Positions 11,728 through 24,540 of a stretch of 64,000 bases of DNA are shown one piece after another. Within the stretch, counting starts at the first letter, position 1, and the number at the start of each line of letters is the position of its first letter. The notes under the pieces are model-generated. The model made no database searches. It was not told the DNA's origin and saw only the letters and a program-made list of their open reading frames with translations. The position numbers and the translations under genes were made by a program. This stretch comes from a virus: positions 1 through 64,000 of the IMG/VR virus record IMGVR_UViG_3300049617_000207. The stretch is one strand, 5' to 3'.

Positions 11728-14700
11728 TCAAGCAGTATAGGCCGACGTTGTCGGCATCGCGACCGTCGCGCCACTCGCATCGTGAAGGAGTGGGTCGGTT
11801 GCCGTCCGCTTCACGCCGAATAGTTCGGCGAGCTTTGCGGCCGTTTCTTTGCGCACTTGAGCAAGTCCACGGTTAAATTCTCCCCACTTGGTCGGGTAGC
11901 CGGTTTCATCCGTCACGCTCCCGGCGTTGTCGAGCACGATTTCCGAAAGACCGATTGCCCAATCCTCTTGGTAGTCGCCTTGCAGCGTATCGTAATTGTC
12001 GCCGGGGGCGGGGCGCTCGAAGTCTTTGGAGTTGTACGCGTGGTCGGTGATGAAGGCACGGATCGAGCGCATCGCGTGCCCGGTGCCGTCGGCGTTATGC
12101 ACGATTTTTACGTTCGGCTCGGTGGTCGTGCCCTTGACCTTCGCGCGCATCCACTTGTTAAACGCCTTCATCTCCTTGCCGAGCGAGCTTCGCGACATCG
12201 CGTGGCAGTATTCGTGGATGAGCGTCCGGTCGCTCCAATCGTGTCCGTTGAAGCTCCCTTTATTCCAGAGACCGACGCCGACCGTCACGAGGCCGGTCTG
12301 CGGAAACGCGAAGCCGCCGTACGGCGTGCCCTCTTTCATGTGATGAAACGAGAGCGTCGTGCCCATGCCGCTGCGCGTCATCGGGCCGAACGTATCGGTG
12401 AGCGTCTTGTCGACGTGCTCGATTTCCGCCATCGAGAGCCCGTGGACGCCGGTGTAACCCTCCTGCGCGCCCAATCTCCCCGCCCCGCCCCATAAAGGAA
12501 ACGCGTCCTCGCCCTCGTCGATGAGGTTTGTGTTGTGAATAAACATCATCGCCTCGCGCGCGACGACCCGGTCAAACGCCGCGTTATGGACGCTGCCGAG
12601 TTTCTTGACCGCCTCGGCCACGGTCTTTGGCTTTATTTCGGCGATGCGGGCGGCGATGTGGCGGGTCTTGCGAATGTAGTCGCGCCGAGCGTCGTCGTCG
12701 GCAAGGTTCTTAATTTTTTGCAGGCGCGCGCTCTCGTAATACATATTCGGAGACTGCGCACGTGCCGCGCCGCGCGACTGCGGGGTCGCGTCCGAGTTGT
12801 TGAGCGTCCCCTCCGTTAAGCTCACGGAGTATCCAACATTACTTTGTAGAAGCGTAATATAGTCTTTTAGTCTATCCGCAGGAACGCTCGCGAGCGCCTC
12901 ATCGCTATCCCACCGATGCAGGCCGTCCGCGGCGGGAGTCCATGTGTCGTGCCCGCCGTAAGTAACAGGCGGGATGGTCTCGCCAAAGAACCGCGCAATG
13001 GGCGAGTATTCGATAGGATTCATCGGCGCACGCGCGCGCGACATTTCGCGGTCGTTGCGCTTCGGTTTGTCGGACTTCGGTTTTGCCGTCGAAGCGGGCG
13101 CCTCGAATTGAAATTCGGTCGCCCATCCGTTTTCGAGCCGACCCATCCCATCGTCGCCGTACGCGGTATCGTTGCAGCGAGTCGGCTTGCCGAATATCGT
13201 AATAGCGGCGTCTAGCTCGCGCTTGTTCGTGAAGCCGTCGATGTTGAGGCGCACGGCACCCTGCTTCTTCTTCGCCTCTTTGGAGAGTGCGGAAAAGACG
13301 TCGTGCAGCGCGCTCTCGTTGCTTGCATAATACGCCTTAAACTTGCAATAGAGACTTTGGTCGACACGCTGGACACTCGCGTCGCCGCTATCGCCTACGT
13401 CGAGATGGACGACGCCGTCGTCGTCGGTGGTCCGCTTGACGCTCGGCCCGGCCGCTGCCGGAGCGGCGGCAGGCTCCGGCTCGTCATCATCGTCGCCCGC
13501 GGCGGCGCCCCCGCCGCCCTGCGAGACGAAGCGGCCGTCGTTGCCGTGATCGTGGCCGACCTCGTCGCGCACCTTCCGCATGGTCGGCGCGGCGGCGTAG
13601 TGATTGCGCACGGCCTCGGTTGCGCTCGCACGATCCGAGAAGATGCGGTCCCCGTGCCCGAGCGCGCCTTTGACGGTGTGCAGGCCCGCGTTGTCCTTCT
13701 GCGGCTCAATCGTGCCGGTGACACCACACTTCGGGCACACGACGACGGCCGAGCCCTCGGGATCGCCGACGGTGAGCGGCACGATGCGGACGTGCCCGTT
13801 GCCCTCATCGGTGCCCTCGGGCTCTTGCACGTGCGAGACGTGTTCGGCCGAGACCGACGCAACGGCGCCCGAGCCCGCGCTATGGTAGGTGACGACGTGG
13901 CCTCCCAGGAGACTCGTGTCCGTGCGCAGCGCGCGCCCGGCGTCGGTCGGCATCGCCATGCCTGCCGCGATGTGCGGCGCGACGTGGATCGCATCGCCCG
14001 GCCGGACCTGTGCGAAGGACTTCGCGAGCGCGCGCGTGGCCGCCGCGTGGACGCGCGAGAGCGGGGTTGCCATCTTTTCCGTGTCCTTCTCTTCCGGCTT
14101 CCAGGCCATCGCTTCGTGTGCGGGCTTCCATAGGTCGTGGTATTCGTTTTGGACGCCGCCGGAGTAGTCCGTCGCGAAGCGCGTGAGCTTGGGATCGAAC
14201 CCCGCGATGACGTCGAGCGGGGCGTCGCGATAGACTTCCCATAACCGGCGCATGTGCTTTTGACCCGCGAGCGACTCGCGCGCTAAGGCGATGTCCTCTT
14301 TCGAGGCGGGCCTTCTCGGCGTGGTCCCTCGGCGGCTGTAGTCCGGGGTGAGGTAGTCGGGTGCCGAGATTTCGTCGAGGTGCTCCTCCCGGTGTGCGAT
14401 TTCCCGGTCGATGTTCTTGAGATGCTTCGGGGCGGCGAGCTTCGCCTTATGCGCGCGGTCGGCATCGGAGACCATCTTTTTCGAGGTCGCCATGTCCATG
14501 CCGTGACCCGCGAGGAGTTTTTGGGCGCACCCGCTTCCGACCAGGCCGCCCGGCTCGACTTCGTAGACGACGTGATGGAGCTTGCCGCATCGGTCGCACT
14601 CGCGCGGCTCGGTGGAGTCGTTGCCTTCGCCCTTCTTCTCTTCATCGGTGCGCAGGTCGTAGCGCGCGACGATCCGCGGCGGCTTGTCGGCCTTTGCGCC

Positions 14701-17700
14701 GCCGCCGCCGGAGGTGAAGCGGCCGTCGTCGCCGTGCTTGTTTCCGTCGTCGTCCACGACCTTCATGATGTCGGCGAGCGTGAGCGCCTTCTCGGTCTCG
14801 TCGGGCTCGTCGAGGTCGACCACGACCTTCGCGGGGAACGAGGTCGCGCCGAGCAGCCGGAGCGCGTTGAAGCGGTGACTGCCTTCGAGCACGTACGGCC
14901 CGTCATGCGCCTGCACGACGATCATCGGGTCGAGTTGCTTACTATCCGCAATCGCCGCGGCTAACGCCTCCGTGCGCTCCTTCTCCGATTTCGAGTAGAA
15001 GCTCGGCGGCCTGCTCACGTCACCAAACGCGGACATGGGCACCTCGCGGATGCCCGGCACAAGCTCGTAGTTGTCGAGCGATGCGCCGATAGACTCGAAA
15101 TTCGCAATCGTCTCGCCGACCTCGCGCCCATCGACGACGTCGCCCACATGAATCCGCGGATACTTCCCGGCCGCCGCAACGGTTGCCTCATCCTTGTCTT
15201 CGAGGCCGGTCTTGGGAGGCGGCTCCGCGACCTTGGGCTTCTCGGGGACCGGCTCGTGTGCGCCCCACCCGAGCGGCTCGCCCGTCTCGCGTTCGATAGC
15301 CGCCTTGATCGCGTGCGCGTCCATATCGCGCGCCGGGTTGATCCACGTGAGCACGCCGTTGGTCACGATGGCGGTGCCGCTCGCGCTGCCCTTGACGTTG
15401 AAGTTGTAAACGACGCCGCCGCGAGGCCCCTTCCCGAGCTTGACGGTAACGCCCTCGGGTATGCCGGTCTTACTCGCGGTCGCGGCTTTCGCGCCGCCCC
15501 CCGTGTTACCAAACCGCCCGTCGGCGCCGTGCTCGTGGCCGACCGCGTCGCGCACCTTCATGATGTCGGCGAGCGTGAGCGCCTTCTCGGTCTCGTGCCG
15601 CGCGATTGCAACGCCGTCGGAGTCGGAGGGCACGCCAACCGACGCCGGGCTAAAGAAACCCGTGCTGCCGACGTCTTCCGCCTTCACGCCGTCGGGCAGC
15701 GAGAGTGGCTGCGTGTCGTTGTTCGAGAGCGACGCGCGCTGGCCGAAAGCCGGGGCATGCGTGTACCCGAGCCGCCGGAGCGCCTCGACGCGGTGGTTCC
15801 CCTCGCTCACCGCCTGCGCCGGGCCGTCGGCGTGATCGGGGTCGACGCTGACCTCTACCGGCTCGCGCAGCCCTTCCTTGGAAACGCTGTCCATTATGGA
15901 CTTGATACGTGCCTCGGACGAATCCTCTCCCGTGTCGTTTCCAGCGATGCGCTTGAGATGCGCGAGCGGCACGAGGCTGACTGCTCCTTTGTCCGCGGGG
16001 TACGACGTCTGCCAATCGCCACCGGGCGAGGTCCATTTTCCGCCCTCGTCGCGCGGCTCCCCGCTCACGTCGTGGACGTGGCCCTTCATGATGTCCGCGA
16101 GCGTGAGCGCCTTCTCGGTCTCGGGCTCGGCATCGTGAATCTTATGCGCGACGACCGCGCCGCCGCGCGCGTGCATCTTCCACGCGCGCGTGACCTTGTC
16201 GAGCCCGATTGGCTTCGGCGCCTTGTAGTAGTAATCGCGTTTATCTTGCGGCGTCTGCTCCGGGTCGTGCTTAATCTCGATCATATAGGTCGGCTTGCCG
16301 GTGACGCGCGGATCGTCGCGGCCATAATTGGCGTACCCCTCGGCGCTTGGCGCGTTATCGTCGAAGCACGTGCCTTCGCTCTTGTCGCTATAGGCGCCCG
16401 AGCTTTGGATGAATCCGGCCTTCTTGTGCGCCTCGAATTCATCGGAGGTCATGCCGCGATAGAGATGCCCCGGCCGCGTCATCTCGCCGACGGCGTCGTT
16501 TCCGGCCTTCCACCCGTCCGGCCGAATCTCCACGCCGCCCGGATCGTCGGGCTTGACGTCCTCCGAGCCCGCGGCGAACCCGTCGCCTGCTGGCCCATTG
16601 CCTGCCGCGCTCGCGCCGGTGCGGCTTTCCCATAACTTATTTCCCTCGGGAGTGCGGTGCGTCGGGCTCGGCTTTAGCTTTGAGCCAAGTTCGCTCTCGA
16701 TGTGGTCATACAAAGCACTCGCAACGCCCTTGCGCCGGTACGCGGGGTCGACCGTCACGCTCGTCACGTAGCTTTTGTCGTCGCTAAGATTAACGCGCGC
16801 AATCTCTTTCGGCGGCGTAACCCCGAATTTCGTCTTCACCGGCTCGCCAATGGTCGCAACGTAGGTGCCGTCGCACGGACTCGATATTTTCGCGCCGTCC
16901 GGCAGATGTTTTCCGCCGCCCGCGCCGCCGGTCGTCCACTTCCCACCCTCGTCGCGCGTTTCGCCGCTAACGTCGTGCTCGTGGCCTTTCATGATGTCCG
17001 CGAGGGTTAGCGCCTTCTCCGTGGGCGCGTCCTCGGGCTTCGGCAGGTCGGCAAGCGGCGTGCCCGGCCCCTTCCCGCGCGCCGCCATCTCCGCCTGATA
17101 CACCTTGCCCGCAATCGGATGCGGGAGTTGCGCCGCACCCTTGAGATACGACGTCCCCCCGCCCGCGTTGCGCAAGGCGAGGTAAAGCTCGGTCTGCGCC
17201 GGGGTCATCGCAACACCGAAATACTTCGCGCGCGGCGTCGTCGTCTCTTGAATGACGCCGTCGCGCTCGATCCACGAGTGCCGCACCCACAGGCCCGACT
17301 CATCCGCCGCGTAGCCCGTGAAGAGCTTGTTCTTCTCGGGGTCGTCGAGGTGCGCGATGGCCGAGTTTTGGTGGCAGTTGTTATGCCCGAATTGGCCTGT
17401 GATTTGCACGGCGCTCGCGCCCGAGTGGTAGGCGCCGTCGCGCAGGATCATCGTGTTGTCGGGGTCTTTTGGGTCCTGGCTGATATAGACCGCATGGCCG
17501 CCGTGATCGAGAATCTTATCGCGCAGCGCCGCGAGGTTTTTGGCGCGGTTGGGCGGGACGTTGGGGATCGGCGCGCCCTTCGTGTCGCCCTGGCGCGTGA
17601 AGCGCGCGACCTCACGCGCAGACATGGCCTCGAAGCCCGCGTGCGCCGCGCCCGCGCCGCCTCCCCCGGCCGTCCACTTACCGTCGGCGTCGCGCGCTTC

Positions 17701-18630
17701 GTCGGCAGCCTTCGCGACCGGCTTCTTCACGAACGGGCTAAGGTCGACGGTCTCCGAGGTGCCGTATTTGTCGTGGGTGATAATCCCGTCGAAGCCGTCC
17801 TTGACGATAGCCGCAGAGAGCGCCTTGCCCGTCTTGCCGTAGTGCGCGGCGAGCACGCTCTTCCAATTCGTCGCGTGCCCGTACTCGCCGCCGAACGGCA
17901 TCACGATAGGCGATTTGAAGTGCGCCGTGCCCGTCTCGTAGTTGCGCTCCTTAAACCACGCGTCGTCTTCTTGCATGTTCGTGCGCTCGGAGAGGTAGCG
18001 CCCGTGCGGCTCGATGTCCTGGCCGAAGCCGCCGGTGTTCTTGGGCGCCTTCTCGGTGTTGCGCATGTACGGGAACGCCGTCGGCGCGCCGTGTTTGTAG
18101 CCGCCGCCGTCGGTTCCCTTAAACGCGTCGTCGCTCGGAAAATAGCCCTGCTCGTGGATCGAGTCGGCGTTCCCGAACAGGTGCCGCGCCTTGACCTTCT
18201 TCGAGGCTATCGTGTATTCGCCGTTAAGCGCAGACTCGCCGTGCATTTTCGCGTAGTCGCGATTTATCGTCACCCAATCGTTCGGGTTTATCTCGGCCTT
18301 GACTCCTTTCGGCAGCGCGCGGTAAGCCGTCACCATCGCATCCGGGTTCCCGCGCACGCTCTGCAGCACGCGCAACGTGTTGCGGTCGAGCGCGTCGTCG
18401 CCGGTCCCGTAATACTGCATCGCGTCTTTGGAATAAATGTCGGGGATCGCCGTGTCGAGGTCGTGTAACGGCGCGGCGCCGCCGTCCTGCTTCATCGGGC
18501 GATGTTGCCCGGCGTACGAGGTCGGCTCACCACCGCCGCCGCCCGCACCCGCCGTCCACTTCCCGCCATCATCACGGTCTTCGCCCGAGACGTCGTGCTC
18601 GCGGCCCTTCATGATGTCGGCGAGGCTCAT
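11728..18630 (-). CDS. polyvalent head-cargo polyprotein (~2300 aa): three ART-like domains, papain/transglutaminase-like, GNAT, two ParB/Srx-like, Zn-ribbon, HExxH metallopeptidase
   Basis: Start re-called at ATG 18630 (ATGA overlap with MuF stop); motifs VTAYRA..WVT..YA..HG, GFDGII, CHQN..TGYA..HSW, VDPAYRRKGVA, LYRG, EGNHR/EGSHR, HEYCH. Confidence 0.8.
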   Translation of the reverse strand: MSLADIMKGREHDVSGEDRDDGGKWTAGAGGGGGEPTSYAGQHRPMKQDGGAAPLHDLDTAIPDIYSKDAMQYYGTGDDALDRNTLRVLQSVRGNPDAMVTAYRALPKGVKAEINPNDWVTINRDYAKMHGESALNGEYTIASKKVKARHLFGNADSIHEQGYFPSDDAFKGTDGGGYKHGAPTAFPYMRNTEKAPKNTGGFGQDIEPHGRYLSERTNMQEDDAWFKERNYETGTAHFKSPIVMPFGGEYGHATNWKSVLAAHYGKTGKALSAAIVKDGFDGIITHDKYGTSETVDLSPFVKKPVAKAADEARDADGKWTAGGGGAGAAHAGFEAMSAREVARFTRQGDTKGAPIPNVPPNRAKNLAALRDKILDHGGHAVYISQDPKDPDNTMILRDGAYHSGASAVQITGQFGHNNCHQNSAIAHLDDPEKNKLFTGYAADESGLWVRHSWIERDGVIQETTTPRAKYFGVAMTPAQTELYLALRNAGGGTSYLKGAAQLPHPIAGKVYQAEMAARGKGPGTPLADLPKPEDAPTEKALTLADIMKGHEHDVSGETRDEGGKWTTGGAGGGKHLPDGAKISSPCDGTYVATIGEPVKTKFGVTPPKEIARVNLSDDKSYVTSVTVDPAYRRKGVASALYDHIESELGSKLKPSPTHRTPEGNKLWESRTGASAAGNGPAGDGFAAGSEDVKPDDPGGVEIRPDGWKAGNDAVGEMTRPGHLYRGMTSDEFEAHKKAGFIQSSGAYSDKSEGTCFDDNAPSAEGYANYGRDDPRVTGKPTYMIEIKHDPEQTPQDKRDYYYKAPKPIGLDKVTRAWKMHARGGAVVAHKIHDAEPETEKALTLADIMKGHVHDVSGEPRDEGGKWTSPGGDWQTSYPADKGAVSLVPLAHLKRIAGNDTGEDSSEARIKSIMDSVSKEGLREPVEVSVDPDHADGPAQAVSEGNHRVEALRRLGYTHAPAFGQRASLSNNDTQPLSLPDGVKAEDVGSTGFFSPASVGVPSDSDGVAIARHETEKALTLADIMKVRDAVGHEHGADGRFGNTGGGAKAATASKTGIPEGVTVKLGKGPRGGVVYNFNVKGSASGTAIVTNGVLTWINPARDMDAHAIKAAIERETGEPLGWGAHEPVPEKPKVAEPPPKTGLEDKDEATVAAAGKYPRIHVGDVVDGREVGETIANFESIGASLDNYELVPGIREVPMSAFGDVSRPPSFYSKSEKERTEALAAAIADSKQLDPMIVVQAHDGPYVLEGSHRFNALRLLGATSFPAKVVVDLDEPDETEKALTLADIMKVVDDDGNKHGDDGRFTSGGGGAKADKPPRIVARYDLRTDEEKKGEGNDSTEPRECDRCGKLHHVVYEVEPGGLVGSGCAQKLLAGHGMDMATSKKMVSDADRAHKAKLAAPKHLKNIDREIAHREEHLDEISAPDYLTPDYSRRGTTPRRPASKEDIALARESLAGQKHMRRLWEVYRDAPLDVIAGFDPKLTRFATDYSGGVQNEYHDLWKPAHEAMAWKPEEKDTEKMATPLSRVHAAATRALAKSFAQVRPGDAIHVAPHIAAGMAMPTDAGRALRTDTSLLGGHVVTYHSAGSGAVASVSAEHVSHVQEPEGTDEGNGHVRIVPLTVGDPEGSAVVVCPKCGVTGTIEPQKDNAGLHTVKGALGHGDRIFSDRASATEAVRNHYAAAPTMRKVRDEVGHDHGNDGRFVSQGGGGAAAGDDDDEPEPAAAPAAAGPSVKRTTDDDGVVHLDVGDSGDASVQRVDQSLYCKFKAYYASNESALHDVFSALSKEAKKKQGAVRLNIDGFTNKRELDAAITIFGKPTRCNDTAYGDDGMGRLENGWATEFQFEAPASTAKPKSDKPKRNDREMSRARAPMNPIEYSPIARFFGETIPPVTYGGHDTWTPAADGLHRWDSDEALASVPADRLKDYITLLQSNVGYSVSLTEGTLNNSDATPQSRGAARAQSPNMYYESARLQKIKNLADDDARRDYIRKTRHIAARIAEIKPKTVAEAVKKLGSVHNAAFDRVVAREAMMFIHNTNLIDEGEDAFPLWGGAGRLGAQEGYTGVHGLSMAEIEHVDKTLTDTFGPMTRSGMGTTLSFHHMKEGTPYGGFAFPQTGLVTVGVGLWNKGSFNGHDWSDRTLIHEYCHAMSRSSLGKEMKAFNKWMRAKVKGTTTEPNVKIVHNADGTGHAMRSIRAFITDHAYNSKDFERPAPGDNYDTLQGDYQEDWAIGLSEIVLDNAGSVTDETGYPTKWGEFNRGLAQVRKETAAKLAELFGVKRTATDPLLHDASGATVAMPTTSAYTA
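14761..14800. repeat. ~40-bp coding repeat for ETEKALTLADIMK (copies near 8706, 9207, 9654, 15556, 16084, 16986, 18607)
   Basis: CTTCATGATGTCSGCGAGCGTGAGCGCCTTCTCGGTCTCG almost identical at 14761, 15556 and 16084. Confidence 0.9.
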
Positions 18631-19541
18631 CGCGGCACGTCGTACCGGCTGCTCACGTCGAGCGGGTCGCCGACTTTGTACGGAAGCCAGGCACAACGGC
18701 ATTGCGGGTGCAGAGGAATTGTCGCAACCCAGGCAGTTTGTTTAATACCGTAGTTACTGCGCCCGATAAGATCGGCCACGCGATAGACCTTACCGTCGAT
18801 AAGTTCGAGACAACGGTCGCAACATTTATCATCGTGTGCCGACGACCCTATTGTTAGCTCTAAGCCCGCGTCCTCGAATTCGCGCAGCCGTCCGACGCTT
18901 TCGGCGCGCGACGTTTCCGTGATCGCGATGCGTCCCCACGCCGTTTCGCGGTCCTTTAGCTCGTTCTCGATCCGGCGCGAGATGACTTTTGGGTTCTCCC
19001 CGTTTTGCATGCCGTCGATGAGCATGCGCCGCAGGTCGGCCTTGAGGTCGTTAAACGAGTCGTCGATTTCGTTAAAGGTCGTATGTTCGAGGAATCGTAT
19101 CGCGCGCCCATCGGTAGGCAGGAGCGGCCGGTGCAACGGTTTCGCGAGCGCCTCGCTCGCAAGCATTTGCCCAAGCGCGTACGCGCGCATGGGATGCGTC
19201 GCTAACTCGAAAAACGCGTGCCGCCGCCATTCCTCGATGGGCTCGTCCATTTGCCAAGGGTCTATCCCCTCCCACGATTCATGTTTGTCGAAGAGTTGGT
19301 TCACAAGTTCGGTGACGCTCGCGAACGCGCGCTTCTGCCCGGCCGTGAGCGCGTCGTAAAACGCCTTCTCTTGTCGGCCGATTTCAGGATCGCCGTGGTT
19401 GCCGGGGAATTTCCCCTCGGCCTTCGCGAGCGTGCGCTCGGGGTAGCCCCATATCCGCTGCATGGTTTTCGCGAGCGCGCGCGGGTTGGGCGAGCCCGTA
19501 AGGACGCAGAGCGCAAATTCCGCTTCGAGGGCGGCGTGCAA
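18627..19541 (-). CDS. MuF/SPP1 gp7-like minor head protein
   Basis: RIAITETSRA, CDRC..LIDGK, PLHPQCRC. Confidence 0.88.
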   Translation of the reverse strand: MHAALEAEFALCVLTGSPNPRALAKTMQRIWGYPERTLAKAEGKFPGNHGDPEIGRQEKAFYDALTAGQKRAFASVTELVNQLFDKHESWEGIDPWQMDEPIEEWRRHAFFELATHPMRAYALGQMLASEALAKPLHRPLLPTDGRAIRFLEHTTFNEIDDSFNDLKADLRRMLIDGMQNGENPKVISRRIENELKDRETAWGRIAITETSRAESVGRLREFEDAGLELTIGSSAHDDKCCDRCLELIDGKVYRVADLIGRSNYGIKQTAWVATIPLHPQCRCAWLPYKVGDPLDVSSRYDVPR

Positions 19542-19550
19542 GGCGGCCCG

Positions 19551-19919
19551 CTAGGGCTGGAAGCCGTCGACGGAGGGCGTCGCGAGCGGCGCGGCCGTGA
19601 TCGTTGCGGGTACGCCGGAGAGCGCCAGCGTGTCGCCCGTCTTCGAGGTGAGCTTATACTGCGTTGGCTTCCCGGCGATGCCTGCGATGCTCGGAAGCAA
19701 GCCCGGCGGCCCTTGCGCGAGGATGCGGGCGTCCGCGGCGGGATCGTGGATGCGGGCAACGATGGTGAAGCCGGAGACGAACGAGCCGGGGGCGCCTTCG
19801 AGGACGCCCGGCTCGTGTTCGAGCACGAGCCCGACGACGACGTCGTTGATGTTCGCGAGCGCGGTGCCGTTCTTGGACAGGGCGCCGGTCGTGAGGTTGA
19901 GGGCGTACGCGTCTGCCAT
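19551..19919 (-). CDS. hypothetical protein
   Basis: GGAGG RBS; late-like motif at 19976. Confidence 0.65.
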   Translation of the reverse strand: MADAYALNLTTGALSKNGTALANINDVVVGLVLEHEPGVLEGAPGSFVSGFTIVARIHDPAADARILAQGPPGLLPSIAGIAGKPTQYKLTSKTGDTLALSGVPATITAAPLATPSVDGFQP

Positions 19920-19995
19920 GTTGCCTCCGTGCTGCTGGCTTGGTCCGGCTCCTTTCCCCGCTACACCGCGGGCGGCCCGCTAGACTTCCGAACAC

Positions 19996-20051
19996 GAAAA
20001 AGGACCCCTTACGGGGTCCTCGGGCTTTGGTTCCGGTCGCGTTGCCAACAC
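19996..20051 (-). ncRNA. putative small antisense RNA to the adjacent tRNA
   Basis: TTGCGC-N18-TATAAT promoter (20085-20056); 5' part complementary to the tRNA D/anticodon arm; AGGACCCC-GTAA-GGGGTCCT-TTTT terminator. Confidence 0.6.
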
Positions 20052-20099
20052 GCGCATTATACCCGAGGACACCGTAAAGGCGCAAGCCCCTTGCCTGCT

Positions 20100-20168
20100 T
20101 GGAGCGGACGGGGATCGAACCCGTACAGTCATGTTGGCAACACGACCGGGCTACCAAGCCACCGCCCC
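20100..20168 (-). tRNA. atypical tRNA: GCC (Gly) anticodon, Ala-type acceptor stem, short D arm, no encoded CCA
   Basis: Manual fold GGGGCGG/CCGCTCC-A; GCT-TGGT-AGC; GTCGTG-TTGCCAA-CATGAC; ACGGG-TTCGATC-CCCGT. Confidence 0.75.
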
Positions 20169-20194
20169 ATCCTTATTTGTTTCGACGCGAGCGA

Positions 20195-22084
20195 CTAACC
20201 CCCCGCCATCTTTGAGAGCGCCCGCGCGAGCCGCTGCACTTCGTTGACGGCCTTGGCGACGGCGGCCGGTGAGCCCGGCTTCGTATCGGCGCCGGGCGGC
20301 TTGGGTGGCCCAGGCGGCGCGTTATCCTCCTGGCCGGGCACGCCCGGCTTCTCCGGCGGCTTGGGCGGCTCGCCCGGCTTCGGCGCCCCTGGCGCACCCG
20401 GTGCCCCGCCGGGGGGCGCCTGCGACGGATCGGCGGGCGGCGGGATGTTGGGCAGGTCCTCGACCTTCACGAGCCCGGCGCCGGACATCACGAGCGTATC
20501 CCCACCGGCCACGGGCGGGAGCTTCTCTTCCTTGCGGCCTTCGTTCACCGTCATGATCCCGCCGGAGATGAGCGCGGTGATCCGCCCGGCGCGGTCGATA
20601 AGGTCGTCGTCGGACTGATCCTCGAATTCGAGCTTCACGTCGCCGAACGGGAAGCACGCGACCGTGTGACCGTCGAGTGAGTTGACGTCCTCGGGGTCGG
20701 TGCGCAGCCACATTTTCCCGCGCAGGACGCCGCCGTTGAGTTGCTCGGCGAGTCCCTTTATCATCGAGTTGACGCCGCGGCTCTGTGTGAGTCCAGACTG
20801 ATTCTCCGCGGTCGCCTTGGCTTTAATGTCTTCGGTGAATCCGATGTCGCCCAGGCCCAGGCCGTACGCCGCGCATTTACGGTTGGCCCAATACTTGAGC
20901 TTTTCGATAGTGGGCGAGTCCTTGTCGCCGCTGCTTTGGATCGGCATGAAGCCCTTGACGCCGTCTTTGTTCGCGACGAAGATGACGCGGTGCTGGCCGC
21001 TGCTTACGCGTTCGTCCCACGCGCGCTCGACCGAGAGCTTCTCGCCCGGCCCGACGTTCGGCCCGAGGTCGAAGATGCCGTAGGGCATGTTATTGTTTGC
21101 GAACCCGTCGAGCAGGTAGGCGTCGCCATAGAGCGAGCCGACCATTTGCTCGACGAGCGATTCGAGCGGCGACTTCCCATAGCCGTCGTTTTGCGGATTG
21201 ATCGAGAGGTACGTTAGCTCGTCGCGGTTATAGAACGCGCGGACCTTGGAGTCGACGCTCCAATCGTAGCCGACGTTTGGGGGCGAGGGCATGTTGCGGT
21301 CTTTGGCGCGGTAGAGCGTTATCTGTTCGCCCGGCAGGTTATAGATTTCGCCGAGCTTCCCATCGAGTGTCGGGTTCTTCACGAGGACGGCCGCATCGTA
21401 GAGCGTGAGGTCGTCGATGAGCAGGTCGAGGAGCGAGCGCAGCGTGGTTTGCGTTGGGTTCGGGCGCATGAGCAGGGCGTTGACGGGTGCGACATGCGAG
21501 AGCGCAATCGCTTCGTGGGCGGCGACCACGTTCTCGAAGAATCCGCGAATCTCGGGTGCCCGGCTCGGGTCTTCGCCGCCTTTGATGACCTCGCGCAGTT
21601 TATCTTTCAGCACGCCCGCGGCTTTATGGTAAATGTCCAGGCTCATCGCCTGCGGGACGAATTCAAGGTCGAGCCCCGGCAGCGCCAGGTTCACGAGCAC
21701 TTTCTTTTCCCATTGGTCGAGGTCGGCTTTAACGGTGTCGAGGTCCGGCACGATTTTCCAGGCCATATCGCCGATAGCCATGCGGATCGTGCGCCGGATC
21801 GCCATGATGATGTCGTCGCGTTCGGCGAGGCTCTTGAGCGTTTGCATCGTAATCGCGGAGTCGCGGCGCTGCGGACTCTCGGCGATGCCACGCTGCTGCA
21901 GGGCGATGAGCGGTTGCAAGCCTTGATCGTGCTGGCCCTTGCGCGGCTCGATGCGACTTGGCCCCGAGGCTTTGGCGAGGAACGAGCCGACGCGCTTGGC
22001 GATACCTCCGGCGGTACGCGGGCGCGTCACCGGCACGAGCGCGCGCACCGCGCGGGGCTCGACGTAGATCGGGTCTAGGTCCAT
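20195..22084 (-). CDS. portal protein
   Basis: LLMRPNP, GYGKSPLE, PYGI, GIMTVNEGR..LPPVAGGD; start uncertain (ORF open to 22276). Confidence 0.88.
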   Translation of the reverse strand: MDLDPIYVEPRAVRALVPVTRPRTAGGIAKRVGSFLAKASGPSRIEPRKGQHDQGLQPLIALQQRGIAESPQRRDSAITMQTLKSLAERDDIIMAIRRTIRMAIGDMAWKIVPDLDTVKADLDQWEKKVLVNLALPGLDLEFVPQAMSLDIYHKAAGVLKDKLREVIKGGEDPSRAPEIRGFFENVVAAHEAIALSHVAPVNALLMRPNPTQTTLRSLLDLLIDDLTLYDAAVLVKNPTLDGKLGEIYNLPGEQITLYRAKDRNMPSPPNVGYDWSVDSKVRAFYNRDELTYLSINPQNDGYGKSPLESLVEQMVGSLYGDAYLLDGFANNNMPYGIFDLGPNVGPGEKLSVERAWDERVSSGQHRVIFVANKDGVKGFMPIQSSGDKDSPTIEKLKYWANRKCAAYGLGLGDIGFTEDIKAKATAENQSGLTQSRGVNSMIKGLAEQLNGGVLRGKMWLRTDPEDVNSLDGHTVACFPFGDVKLEFEDQSDDDLIDRAGRITALISGGIMTVNEGRKEEKLPPVAGGDTLVMSGAGLVKVEDLPNIPPPADPSQAPPGGAPGAPGAPKPGEPPKPPEKPGVPGQEDNAPPGPPKPPGADTKPGSPAAVAKAVNEVQRLARALSKMAGG

Positions 22085-24510: not shown

Positions 24511-24540
24511 TTGACTTTCCAGCGCGCACGGAAGTATAAT
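24511..24540 (+). promoter_or_regulatory. repeated sigma70-like phage promoter
   Basis: TTGACT-ttccagcgcgcacggaag-TATAAT; related copies at 11702, 27429, 28876, 47926, 48554, 49789, 52205, 52499, 56441, 62816, 63182. Confidence 0.8.

Follow-up and report, generated by a model that had tools for sequence, protein, structure and literature searches.

A compact tRNA gene with an alanine-type acceptor end, a glycine anticodon and a predicted antisense RNA partner in a phage head-gene operon

Results

The compact tRNA gene

The window analysed here, a stretch of 64,000 nucleotides (nt), comprises the first 64 kb of IMG/VR record IMGVR_UViG_3300049617_000207, a complete virus record of 96,014 bp with direct terminal repeats. 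On its minus strand, at positions 20168-20100, lies the gene for a compact tRNA of 69 nt, identified with Rfam model RF00005, with ARAGORN and by direct reading, which is the sole tRNA gene of the whole phage record and which combines an alanine-type acceptor end with a glycine anticodon. The portal protein gene (22276-20195, minus) is located upstream in the same orientation, with 26 nt from its stop codon to the tRNA, a gap in which no promoter was apparent. Downstream are a conserved open reading frame (ORF) of 122 amino acids (aa; 19919-19551, minus) and a late gene for a MuF-like minor head protein (19541-18627, minus). An initial annotation of this stretch had placed the tRNA between the portal and MuF genes, which is correct, the 122-aa ORF being a further gene between the tRNA and MuF. 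The decisive context was missed in that reading, namely a cognate antisense RNA gene and an antiterminator, both of which reside in the same insertion as the tRNA.

The structure of the tRNA was read directly from the minus strand. The acceptor stem comprises seven pairs (G1:C72, G2:C71, G3:U70, G4:C69, C5:G68, G6:C67 and G7:C66), with G3:U70 located at 20166/20103, the discriminator A73 at 20100 and a U at position -1; the CCA end is not encoded. The acceptor and anticodon stems are just 16 nt apart, and these nucleotides fold into a hairpin of 4 bp with 4 nt in its loop; this miniature D loop retains two G residues of the kind that normally touch the T loop. The anticodon stem of 5 bp, extendable to 8 bp, carries a 7-nt loop with U33, the anticodon GCC (20138-20136) and A37, and is followed by a variable region of 4 nt and a canonical T arm (5 bp with a 7-nt loop, and G53, U54, U55, C56, A58 and C61). 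None of the 17 pairs in the acceptor, anticodon and T stems is disrupted. The initial annotation, in which the strand was not given, had described the same acceptor stem with G1:C72, G2:C71, G3:U70 and A73, the GCC-containing anticodon loop, a normal T arm and a 4-nt D loop, and each of these features is confirmed by direct reading.

With 33.3 bits, the RF00005 match exceeds the gathering score of 29, and it covers model positions 1-71 in full (E value of 8e-5 for the region and 1.4e-6 for the genome), and the tRNA model scores above the other families of its clan on the window RNA. The minimum free energy fold has a z-score of -3.1 relative to shuffled sequences. ARAGORN, which had been suggested as a check on the isotype, called the gene as tRNA-Gly(gcc). 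A register-shift origin from a tRNA-Gly, by which U73-CCA was absorbed into the stem, was also considered, and was rejected on the grounds that it needs two coordinated 3-nt deletions and has no viable alternative fold.

Aminoacylation identity

The determinants of alanine identity in bacterial tRNAs are A73, G2:C71, G3:U70, G4:C69 and G20, and those of glycine identity are U73, G1:C72, C2:G71, G3:C70, C35 and C36 (PMC9976931 Table 1). The window RNA has all four acceptor-branch determinants of the alanine set (A73, G2:C71, G3:U70 and G4:C69), whereas three of the four acceptor-branch determinants of the glycine set are missing (U73, C2:G71 and G3:C70), with G1:C72, C35 and C36 being present. 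The minor alanine determinant G20 would fall in the 4-nt D loop, where two G residues are followed by U and to which the standard numbering is not assignable. On this comparison the alanine-identity argument made in the initial annotation is sound (PMC9976931). The anticodon is GCC as opposed to the NGC of tRNA-Ala, although NGC defines what is decoded and not what is charged. Alanyl-tRNA synthetase (AlaRS) takes no account of the anticodon (PMC12084884), and natural non-canonical G3:U70 tRNAs with the anticodons GCG or UUA put alanine into Escherichia coli proteins (PMC5389517). Because of the full acceptor-branch alanine set and the alanine insertion associated with natural G3:U70 tRNAs, charging of the window tRNA with alanine by the host AlaRS is a well-grounded prediction, and the best grounded of those made here. 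That the charged tRNA would then decode glycine codons as alanine is plausible. The interpretation given in the initial annotation is thus supported in part, its proposals of a mistranslator, a toxin or a decoy being hypotheses.

Searches of the phage for an AlaRS core, a tRNA_SAD editing domain, a CCA-adding enzyme and a class IIa synthetase core found none of these, and host enzymes would therefore have to act on the tRNA. GGC is the commonest glycine codon of the phage, accounting for 63% of its glycine codons, and GGC and GGU together make up approximately 66 per 1000 codons in the phage's own genes.

A predicted antisense transcription unit downstream of the tRNA

A sigma-70-like promoter is located downstream of the tRNA at 20085-20056 (minus), with a -10 hexamer identical to the consensus, an 18-nt spacer and a -35 hexamer in which the first three bases match the consensus. 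Two sites of this type occur in the 64 kb where none would be expected; consensus -10 hexamers number four in the 96 kb, and both of the intergenic ones have a -35 element at 18-nt spacing. A stricter promoter scan did not call the site at 20085-20056. The only other intergenic consensus -10 hexamer, which has a near-consensus -35 at 18-nt spacing (24511-24540, plus strand), is likely to be a strong promoter, judging by its sequence.

Transcription from the promoter at 20085-20056 would yield a small RNA of approximately 55 nt (about 20051-19996, minus), in which the 28 nt at the 5' end complement tRNA nt 9-38 and the 3' end corresponds to an intrinsic terminator (20021-20000, minus), its stem of 9 bp being capped by a GNRA-type tetraloop and followed by a U run. 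The anti-tRNA core, an 18-nt inverted repeat designated I2 (20050-20033, minus), is 94% complementary to 20132-20149, that is, to tRNA nt 20-37. The predicted duplex comprises an unbroken run of 19 pairs (including two G-U) with tRNA nt 20-38, and spans the 5' strand of the anticodon stem, the entire loop and the start of the 3' strand; beyond a single bulge, 8 further pairs extend it over the D hairpin. The duplex energy was equalled by none of 1000 shuffles, and the alignment score was reached by 1 of 2000. An alternative reading of the anticodon-arm similarity as a direct repeat was discarded, since identity is 82% in the direct sense compared with 94% in the inverted sense, and the inverted repeat is the longer.

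A second inverted repeat, I1, has its 5' arm inside the promoter spacer (20080-20062, minus), from where it can pair as an antiterminator with 20024-20006, a segment that overlaps the 5' arm, the loop and the first bases of the 3' arm of the terminator. The repeat is 19 nt long and 89% complementary, a count by hand giving 18 of 19 pairs if a single G-U is accepted. Folding of the leader by itself yields the I1 hairpin at -51 kcal/mol and no terminator. Fold prediction thus indicates that transcripts from the internal promoter, which lack the I1 5' arm, should terminate, whereas read-through transcripts from the portal gene, which contain it, should pass the terminator. Such an antiterminator would explain the presence of a terminator amid a head operon.

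Occurrence of the gene pair elsewhere

Pattern scans were conducted against IMG/VR, a genome collection, a metagenome collection and 401 Patescibacteria genomes, with patterns that combined the alanine-type acceptor end with either this anticodon loop or the compact body; the antisense partner was not a search criterion. Many of the matches were set aside as chance occurrences in coding DNA or as ordinary tRNA-Ala genes. At ten further loci, the D/anticodon region has its cognate-specific reverse complement within 200 nt. Two of these are on viral contigs (L178, which is identical to L240, and L121), seven are in metagenome-assembled genomes (MAGs) of Saccharibacteria, Uhrbacteria and other Patescibacteria (L023, L028, L035, L048, L047, L080 and L081), and one is on a metagenome contig (L072). 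Across the 11 loci that include the window, alignment scores have a mean of 37 on the diagonal of the matrix as opposed to 16 off the diagonal, and none of 100000 permutations reached the diagonal sum. A matrix of duplex energies agrees, with each partner fitting its own neighbour. The stems vary between loci, yet each antisense partner matches its own tRNA. Inspection by eye revealed a -35/-10-like promoter directly before the complement, and a GC-rich hairpin and T run after it, at 9 of the 11 loci, the window included; the exceptions are L121, where only a -10-like hexamer is apparent, and L047, where neither element is clear.

An alignment of five module RNAs has 80% of its cells paired compared with 66% in shuffles, a value matched by none of 500 shuffles, with 14 pairs changed on both sides and G3:U70 kept in all five, figures that should be read in the light of the small sample and of a structure derived from the window sequence. 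The closest architectural relative of the window RNA is a 68-nt RNA on the L178/L240 contigs (L178:2106-2173, plus; L240:1403-1470, minus), which resembles it in U8, the miniature D hairpin and the long anticodon stem, has a near-identical T arm, and keeps G3:U70, A73 and the loop with U33 and A37 around a CCA (Trp) anticodon. Its antisense unit is located downstream, and the module is co-oriented within a head operon in the order portal, minor head protein, module, scaffold and major head protein. The L072 tRNA (L072:1475-1547, minus) is a full cloverleaf of 73 nt with the window's seven acceptor pairs, A73 and GCC loop, and the approximately 150 nt downstream of it contain a consensus-like promoter, a complement of tRNA nt 16-44 and a terminator. 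The same 1.7-kb contig also has a gene for a CI/LexA-like repressor some 450 bp past the antisense unit. The window locus, L072 and L178/L240 keep a textbook anticodon loop, with two non-alanine anticodons between the three. Two Patescibacteria genomes carry the tRNA-like gene with its antisense partner (L080:1501-1571, plus; L081:1501-1568, minus) directly upstream of smpB and approximately 2 kb from a standard transfer-messenger RNA (tmRNA) gene.

Conservation of G3:U70 together with GCC in homologs, as had been envisaged in the initial annotation, does not extend to syntenic relatives, from which the gene is absent; unrelated loci keep G3:U70 and A73, while the anticodon varies (GCC in L072, CCA in L178/L240). 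The same annotation had considered that homologs might display the random decay expected of a pseudo-tRNA. This is not so, for all stems are intact and covary, and such stems, together with the recurrence of the partner, exclude random decay on the sequence evidence. The comparison indicates that the alanine mark is real and conserved, and that the locus is a real, selected RNA pair as opposed to a broken gene.

Insertion status and genomic context

In 10 related phages, the homologue of the 122-aa ORF starts 2-12 bp past the portal stop codon, with neither a tRNA nor a tRNA-like signal present. Since the two genes nearly abut in the relatives, the approximately 275 bp from the portal stop codon to the start of the 122-aa ORF in the window (20194-19920, minus) represents a lineage-specific insertion. 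The comparison covers IMG/VR phages with 42-63% portal identity, the closest portal homologs (up to 65% identity) being from non-IMG sources. An exact portal peptide search of IMG/VR returned no relatives, and a portal profile search returned 19 loci, in none of which is a tRNA near the portal gene. The GC content of the insertion equals that of the genome, within which no second copy of the cassette was found. An IS605-type mini-element was entertained as its origin and rejected: such elements do occur elsewhere in the phage, but the cassette is single-copy and dissimilar to them.

DNA of the phage was found in moss metagenome runs, and no RNA run was listed as containing it. In a second assembly, probably of the source run, the region is identical, with a depth of approximately 20 and no variants; this shows that the sequence is not an assembler slip, although both assemblies rest on the same reads. 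No DNA match to this phage was found among cultured phages, and its portal protein has only remote matches to theirs (24-27% identity). Directly after the MuF gene is an ORF of 2324 aa (11728-18702, minus) with several matches to ParB-like nuclease/partition domains and a weak GNAT match, the product of which may be a giant head-associated cargo protein.

Related alanine-type RNAs in which no partner was detected

The scans also returned a number of RNAs that share parts of this architecture. An Eggerthellaceae MAG encodes an ordinary tRNA-Ala body (L056:3898-3970, plus; 62 bits) with the anticodon GCC in place of GGC and with no antisense partner detected, which could be either a genuine variant or a sequencing error. 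Nine viral contigs (L225 and L234, 72 nt each; L171 and L183, 69 nt each; L092, L110, L127, L147 and L232) encode tRNAs with alanine-type acceptors and non-alanine anticodons, among them UCA (opal) twice, CUA (amber), GAA, CCC and GUC, and no antisense partner was detected within 220-300 nt of any of the nine. The CUA anticodon was called by ARAGORN in L171, and was read from the loop by eye in L183, where ARAGORN called nothing. A further set of tRNA-like RNAs of approximately 72-74 nt with alanine-type ends was found at three Acidimicrobiia loci (L027, L039 and L050) and at L058 (the same as viral L002), L029, L070 and L003. A hairpin replaces the D arm in these RNAs, which share a loop motif and some of which match Rfam models weakly (tmRNA or mascRNA-like), and no antisense partner was found within 200 nt.

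Viral contigs L217/L219, L221 and L223 encode tmRNA-like RNAs of 76-78 nt that consist of the tRNA-like domain (TLD) only; these have a tmRNA-type D-loop analogue and resemble the RNA of phage DS6A. Copies of tRNA-Ile and tRNA-Ala with one or two extra anticodon-loop bases (8-9-nt loops) were observed in rRNA operons (L079:1667-1861 and L038:438-707), with normal copies alongside, and these expansions may be assembly indels or degenerate operon copies. Finally, a 3-kb metagenome contig (L076:529-2651) contains a 15-tRNA array together with an alanine-type tRNA that has an 8-nt loop (2251-2321) and was not called by ARAGORN.

Discussion

The favoured explanation, to which a probability of roughly 0.4 is assigned, is that the insertion constitutes a functional accessory module in the head-gene operon, comprising a compact tRNA charged with alanine, an antisense RNA that masks it and an antiterminator. 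From the sequence features, the insertion, the complementarity and the recurrent, co-varying layout described above, we infer a course of transcription, processing, alanine charging, decoding, masking and antitermination as follows. The tRNA would be transcribed within the late operon and excised by host RNase P and 3' processing, with the CCA end being added by the host. Because of the full alanine mark at the acceptor end, and because AlaRS does not read the anticodon, host AlaRS would charge the tRNA with alanine, and the canonical GCC loop would be able to read GGC and GGU. The small RNA would be made from its own sigma-70-type promoter, and its 5' end would pair with the D hairpin, the anticodon loop and the 5' strand of its stem, masking the anticodon while the acceptor/T helix stays free, such that the tRNA is restrained or timed. 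The antiterminator would form in read-through transcripts only, where it would keep the small-RNA terminator from blocking the downstream head genes. Canonical loops with two different non-alanine anticodons, together with an antisense RNA that covers the anticodon, appear to fit a restrained decoder.

Several observations weigh against this interpretation. The Rfam score of the tRNA is low when set against the 62-73 bits of ordinary tRNAs. The D region is without A14, R15 and other conserved core nucleotides, and function on the ribosome is uncertain for that reason. Efficient replacement of glycine by alanine would be expected to damage the late proteins of the phage, given the frequency of GGC and GGU in its genes, and the tRNA is predicted to be co-transcribed with the very genes that encode them. 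The gene is also dispensable in the 10 relatives, from which it is absent. Furthermore, the central loops of the Patescibacteria members have 4, 6, 8 or 12 nt and are unable to decode, and the function common to the family may thus not be translation.

The irregular loops of the bacterial members bear directly on an alternative that is regarded as possible, if somewhat unlikely, namely that the RNA is a non-decoding tRNA mimic which acts via the acceptor/T-arm helix and elbow, with the anticodon-like arm serving mainly as a landing site for the antisense RNA. A mimic of this kind could feasibly compete for, or act as a decoy of, SmpB, elongation factor EF-Tu, AlaRS, or a nuclease or modifying enzyme directed at tRNAs, or could serve as an alanine donor. 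The location of the module next to smpB and near a standard tmRNA gene in two Patescibacteria genomes is in keeping with this idea, as are the weak matches of the Rfam tmRNA model to compact members and the many compact alanine-type RNAs of 66-70 nt in viral contigs. Moreover, mycobacteriophage DS6A has a TLD-only tmRNA-like RNA, and strong inhibition of tmRNA is recorded for a truncated molecule of similar type (PMC4131195, PMC11915505). However, a pure acceptor-end mimic would have no need of the textbook anticodon stem-loop that is present in the window RNA, L178/L240 and L072. The window RNA is also without the D-loop-analogue motif of DS6A and the other TLD-only phage RNAs, for which no antisense partner was detected, and its best score within the Rfam clan is to the tRNA model. 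A two-piece or reduced tmRNA was considered as well and rejected, as the module-bearing Patescibacteria genomes also have a standard tmRNA and the small RNAs leave no room for a tag frame.

It is decidedly unlikely that the insertion is instead a cis- or trans-acting device for transcription control of the head operon, akin to the RNase P-processed antisense immunity RNAs C4 (P1/P7) and CI (P4) or to a minimal T-box, in which the excised tRNA would pair within the antiterminator loop and break the antiterminator, so that neither the 122-aa ORF nor the MuF gene is reached by transcription. The antiterminator hairpin does have the complement in its 37-nt loop, upstream of the terminator, and the leader hairpin loop offers a GGC codon to the GCC anticodon; and whereas the leader alone adopts the antiterminator, a fold that includes the tRNA favours pairing between tRNA and leader together with the terminator (-93 kcal/mol). 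Conversely, no match to the T-box family (RF00230) was found at E values up to 1 over 19500-20800, and the units at L023 and L072 end at a terminator that faces convergent genes, leaving nothing downstream to regulate. In the L028 group the complement precedes only the tRNA-like gene itself, and the promoter placed directly before the complement at most loci is better suited to a free-standing small RNA. An inert relic, in which a captured tRNA with a partly lost D arm is accompanied by an inverted-duplication scar of the insertion rearrangement, is highly unlikely. The locus is a singleton with respect to all sampled relatives, the tRNA score is low, template switching can create inverted repeats, and sporadic single-base changes from Ala(GGC) to GCC exist in the absence of partners, as in L056, all of which a relic would accommodate; but no stem pair is broken, unrelated genomes share the compact body and the partner layout, with compensating changes, and the promoter, the terminator and the operon-protecting antiterminator are all correctly placed. 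Very improbable indeed is an ordinary tRNA-Gly for codon supply, charged with glycine by the GlyRS of the host. C35, C36 and G1:C72 are present and the preponderance of GGC among the phage glycine codons is as this idea predicts, yet the alanine set stands in place of U73, C2:G71 and G3:C70, the L178/L240 homolog keeps that set with a Trp anticodon, and a helper tRNA would need no antisense RNA.

If the favoured explanation of an alanine-charged tRNA held in check by an antisense RNA is correct, and the tRNA is competent on the ribosome, then the phage would encode a regulated sense-codon mistranslator, and code ambiguity could be both carried and controlled by a mobile genetic module. A bolder extension, which is considered unlikely, is that of an RNA-only, self-insulated module for programmable mistranslation that moves between phage head operons and rewrites a chosen codon as alanine. 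The anticodon (GCC here and in L072, CCA in L178/L240) would be swappable, and the module would act once the output of tRNA exceeds that of the constitutive antisense RNA, perhaps as a timer, a host-shutoff device or an addiction device, the tRNA and small RNA then forming a toxin-antitoxin pair. The compact body might be of interest for synthetic genetic-code work, as a minimal tRNA chassis with anticodon-independent charging and an RNA off-switch. Even if decoding does not occur, the recurrent, co-varying pairing of a tRNA-like RNA with an antisense RNA appears to represent an undescribed RNA-RNA class that is common to phages and ultra-small episymbiotic bacteria, and the predicted antiterminator illustrates how a terminator-bearing insertion could reside in an operon without polarity. 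A search of the literature turned up no account of a dedicated antisense RNA gene for any tRNA or tRNA-like RNA, and Rfam 15 has no family for either partner. The window locus is apparently a phage member of an undescribed two-RNA module, mis-identity tRNAs themselves being already known.

Comparison with known systems

The allo-tRNAs of soil Acidobacteria metagenomes, like the window RNA, combine the G3:U70 alanine pair with a non-alanine anticodon; they are often located near toxin-antitoxin loci and have been proposed to act as missense or nonsense suppressors and/or regulatory RNAs (PMC5389517). They differ from the window RNA in having 8/4 or 9/3 acceptor/T helices (PMC5389517), the corresponding arrangement here being 7/5; the D arm of the window RNA is miniature and its variable region is 4 nt long. 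Additionally, the window RNA is phage-borne and has a dedicated antisense RNA, whereas the word 'antisense' does not appear in the allo-tRNA paper (PMC5389517). An eighth acceptor pair is present in the ARAGORN model of the window RNA, and makes use of U-1 and A73. The allo-tRNAs of Mukai et al. 2017 reportedly have a long variable arm.

Anticodon variants of tRNA-Ala put alanine at other codons in human (PMC12084884) and yeast (PMC10543346) systems, according to the same logic as that proposed here, in which an alanine mark is joined to a foreign anticodon that AlaRS does not see. These eukaryotic variants are single-base changes in normal tRNA-Ala genes, whereas the window gene is restructured, mobile, virus-encoded and equipped with what appears to be its own regulator. 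A human tRNA-Ala G35C variant is said, in the title of Hasan et al. 2023, to put alanine at glycine codons. The tRNA-ProX genes of Streptomyces and Kitasatospora are genome-encoded, split-identity tRNAs that mistranslate sense codons (PMC10404621); in contrast to the window RNA they have proline identity, a cloverleaf of normal size and a chromosomal location, and no antisense partner has been reported for them.

The TLD-only tmRNA-like RNAs share with the window RNA a phage-borne location, a length of approximately 65-80 nt, G3:U70 and A73, a reduced D region and the absence of a tag frame (PMC4131195, PMC11915505). The DS6A RNA (JN698994 28478-28557), however, has a tmRNA-type D-loop analogue and a helix-2-like arm, no anticodon loop and no detected antisense partner, while the window RNA combines a D hairpin with a canonical anticodon stem and 7-nt loop, and is called as a tRNA. 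Matured by RNase P, the C4 RNA of phages P1 and P7 and the CI RNA of satellite P4 are antisense RNAs that pair within their own operons and affect termination; these RNAs are not aminoacylatable tRNAs. With regard to organisation, type I and type VIII (CreTA, SdsR/RyeA) toxin-antitoxin systems offer a parallel, in that a potentially harmful RNA is neutralised by a small antisense RNA, which is encoded next to it and has a promoter and terminator of its own. No known toxin-antitoxin system has a tRNA as the harmful partner, and toxicity of the window tRNA is a hypothesis. RNA-controlled toxin-antitoxin systems are, as here, mobile accessory modules that come and go between related genomes.

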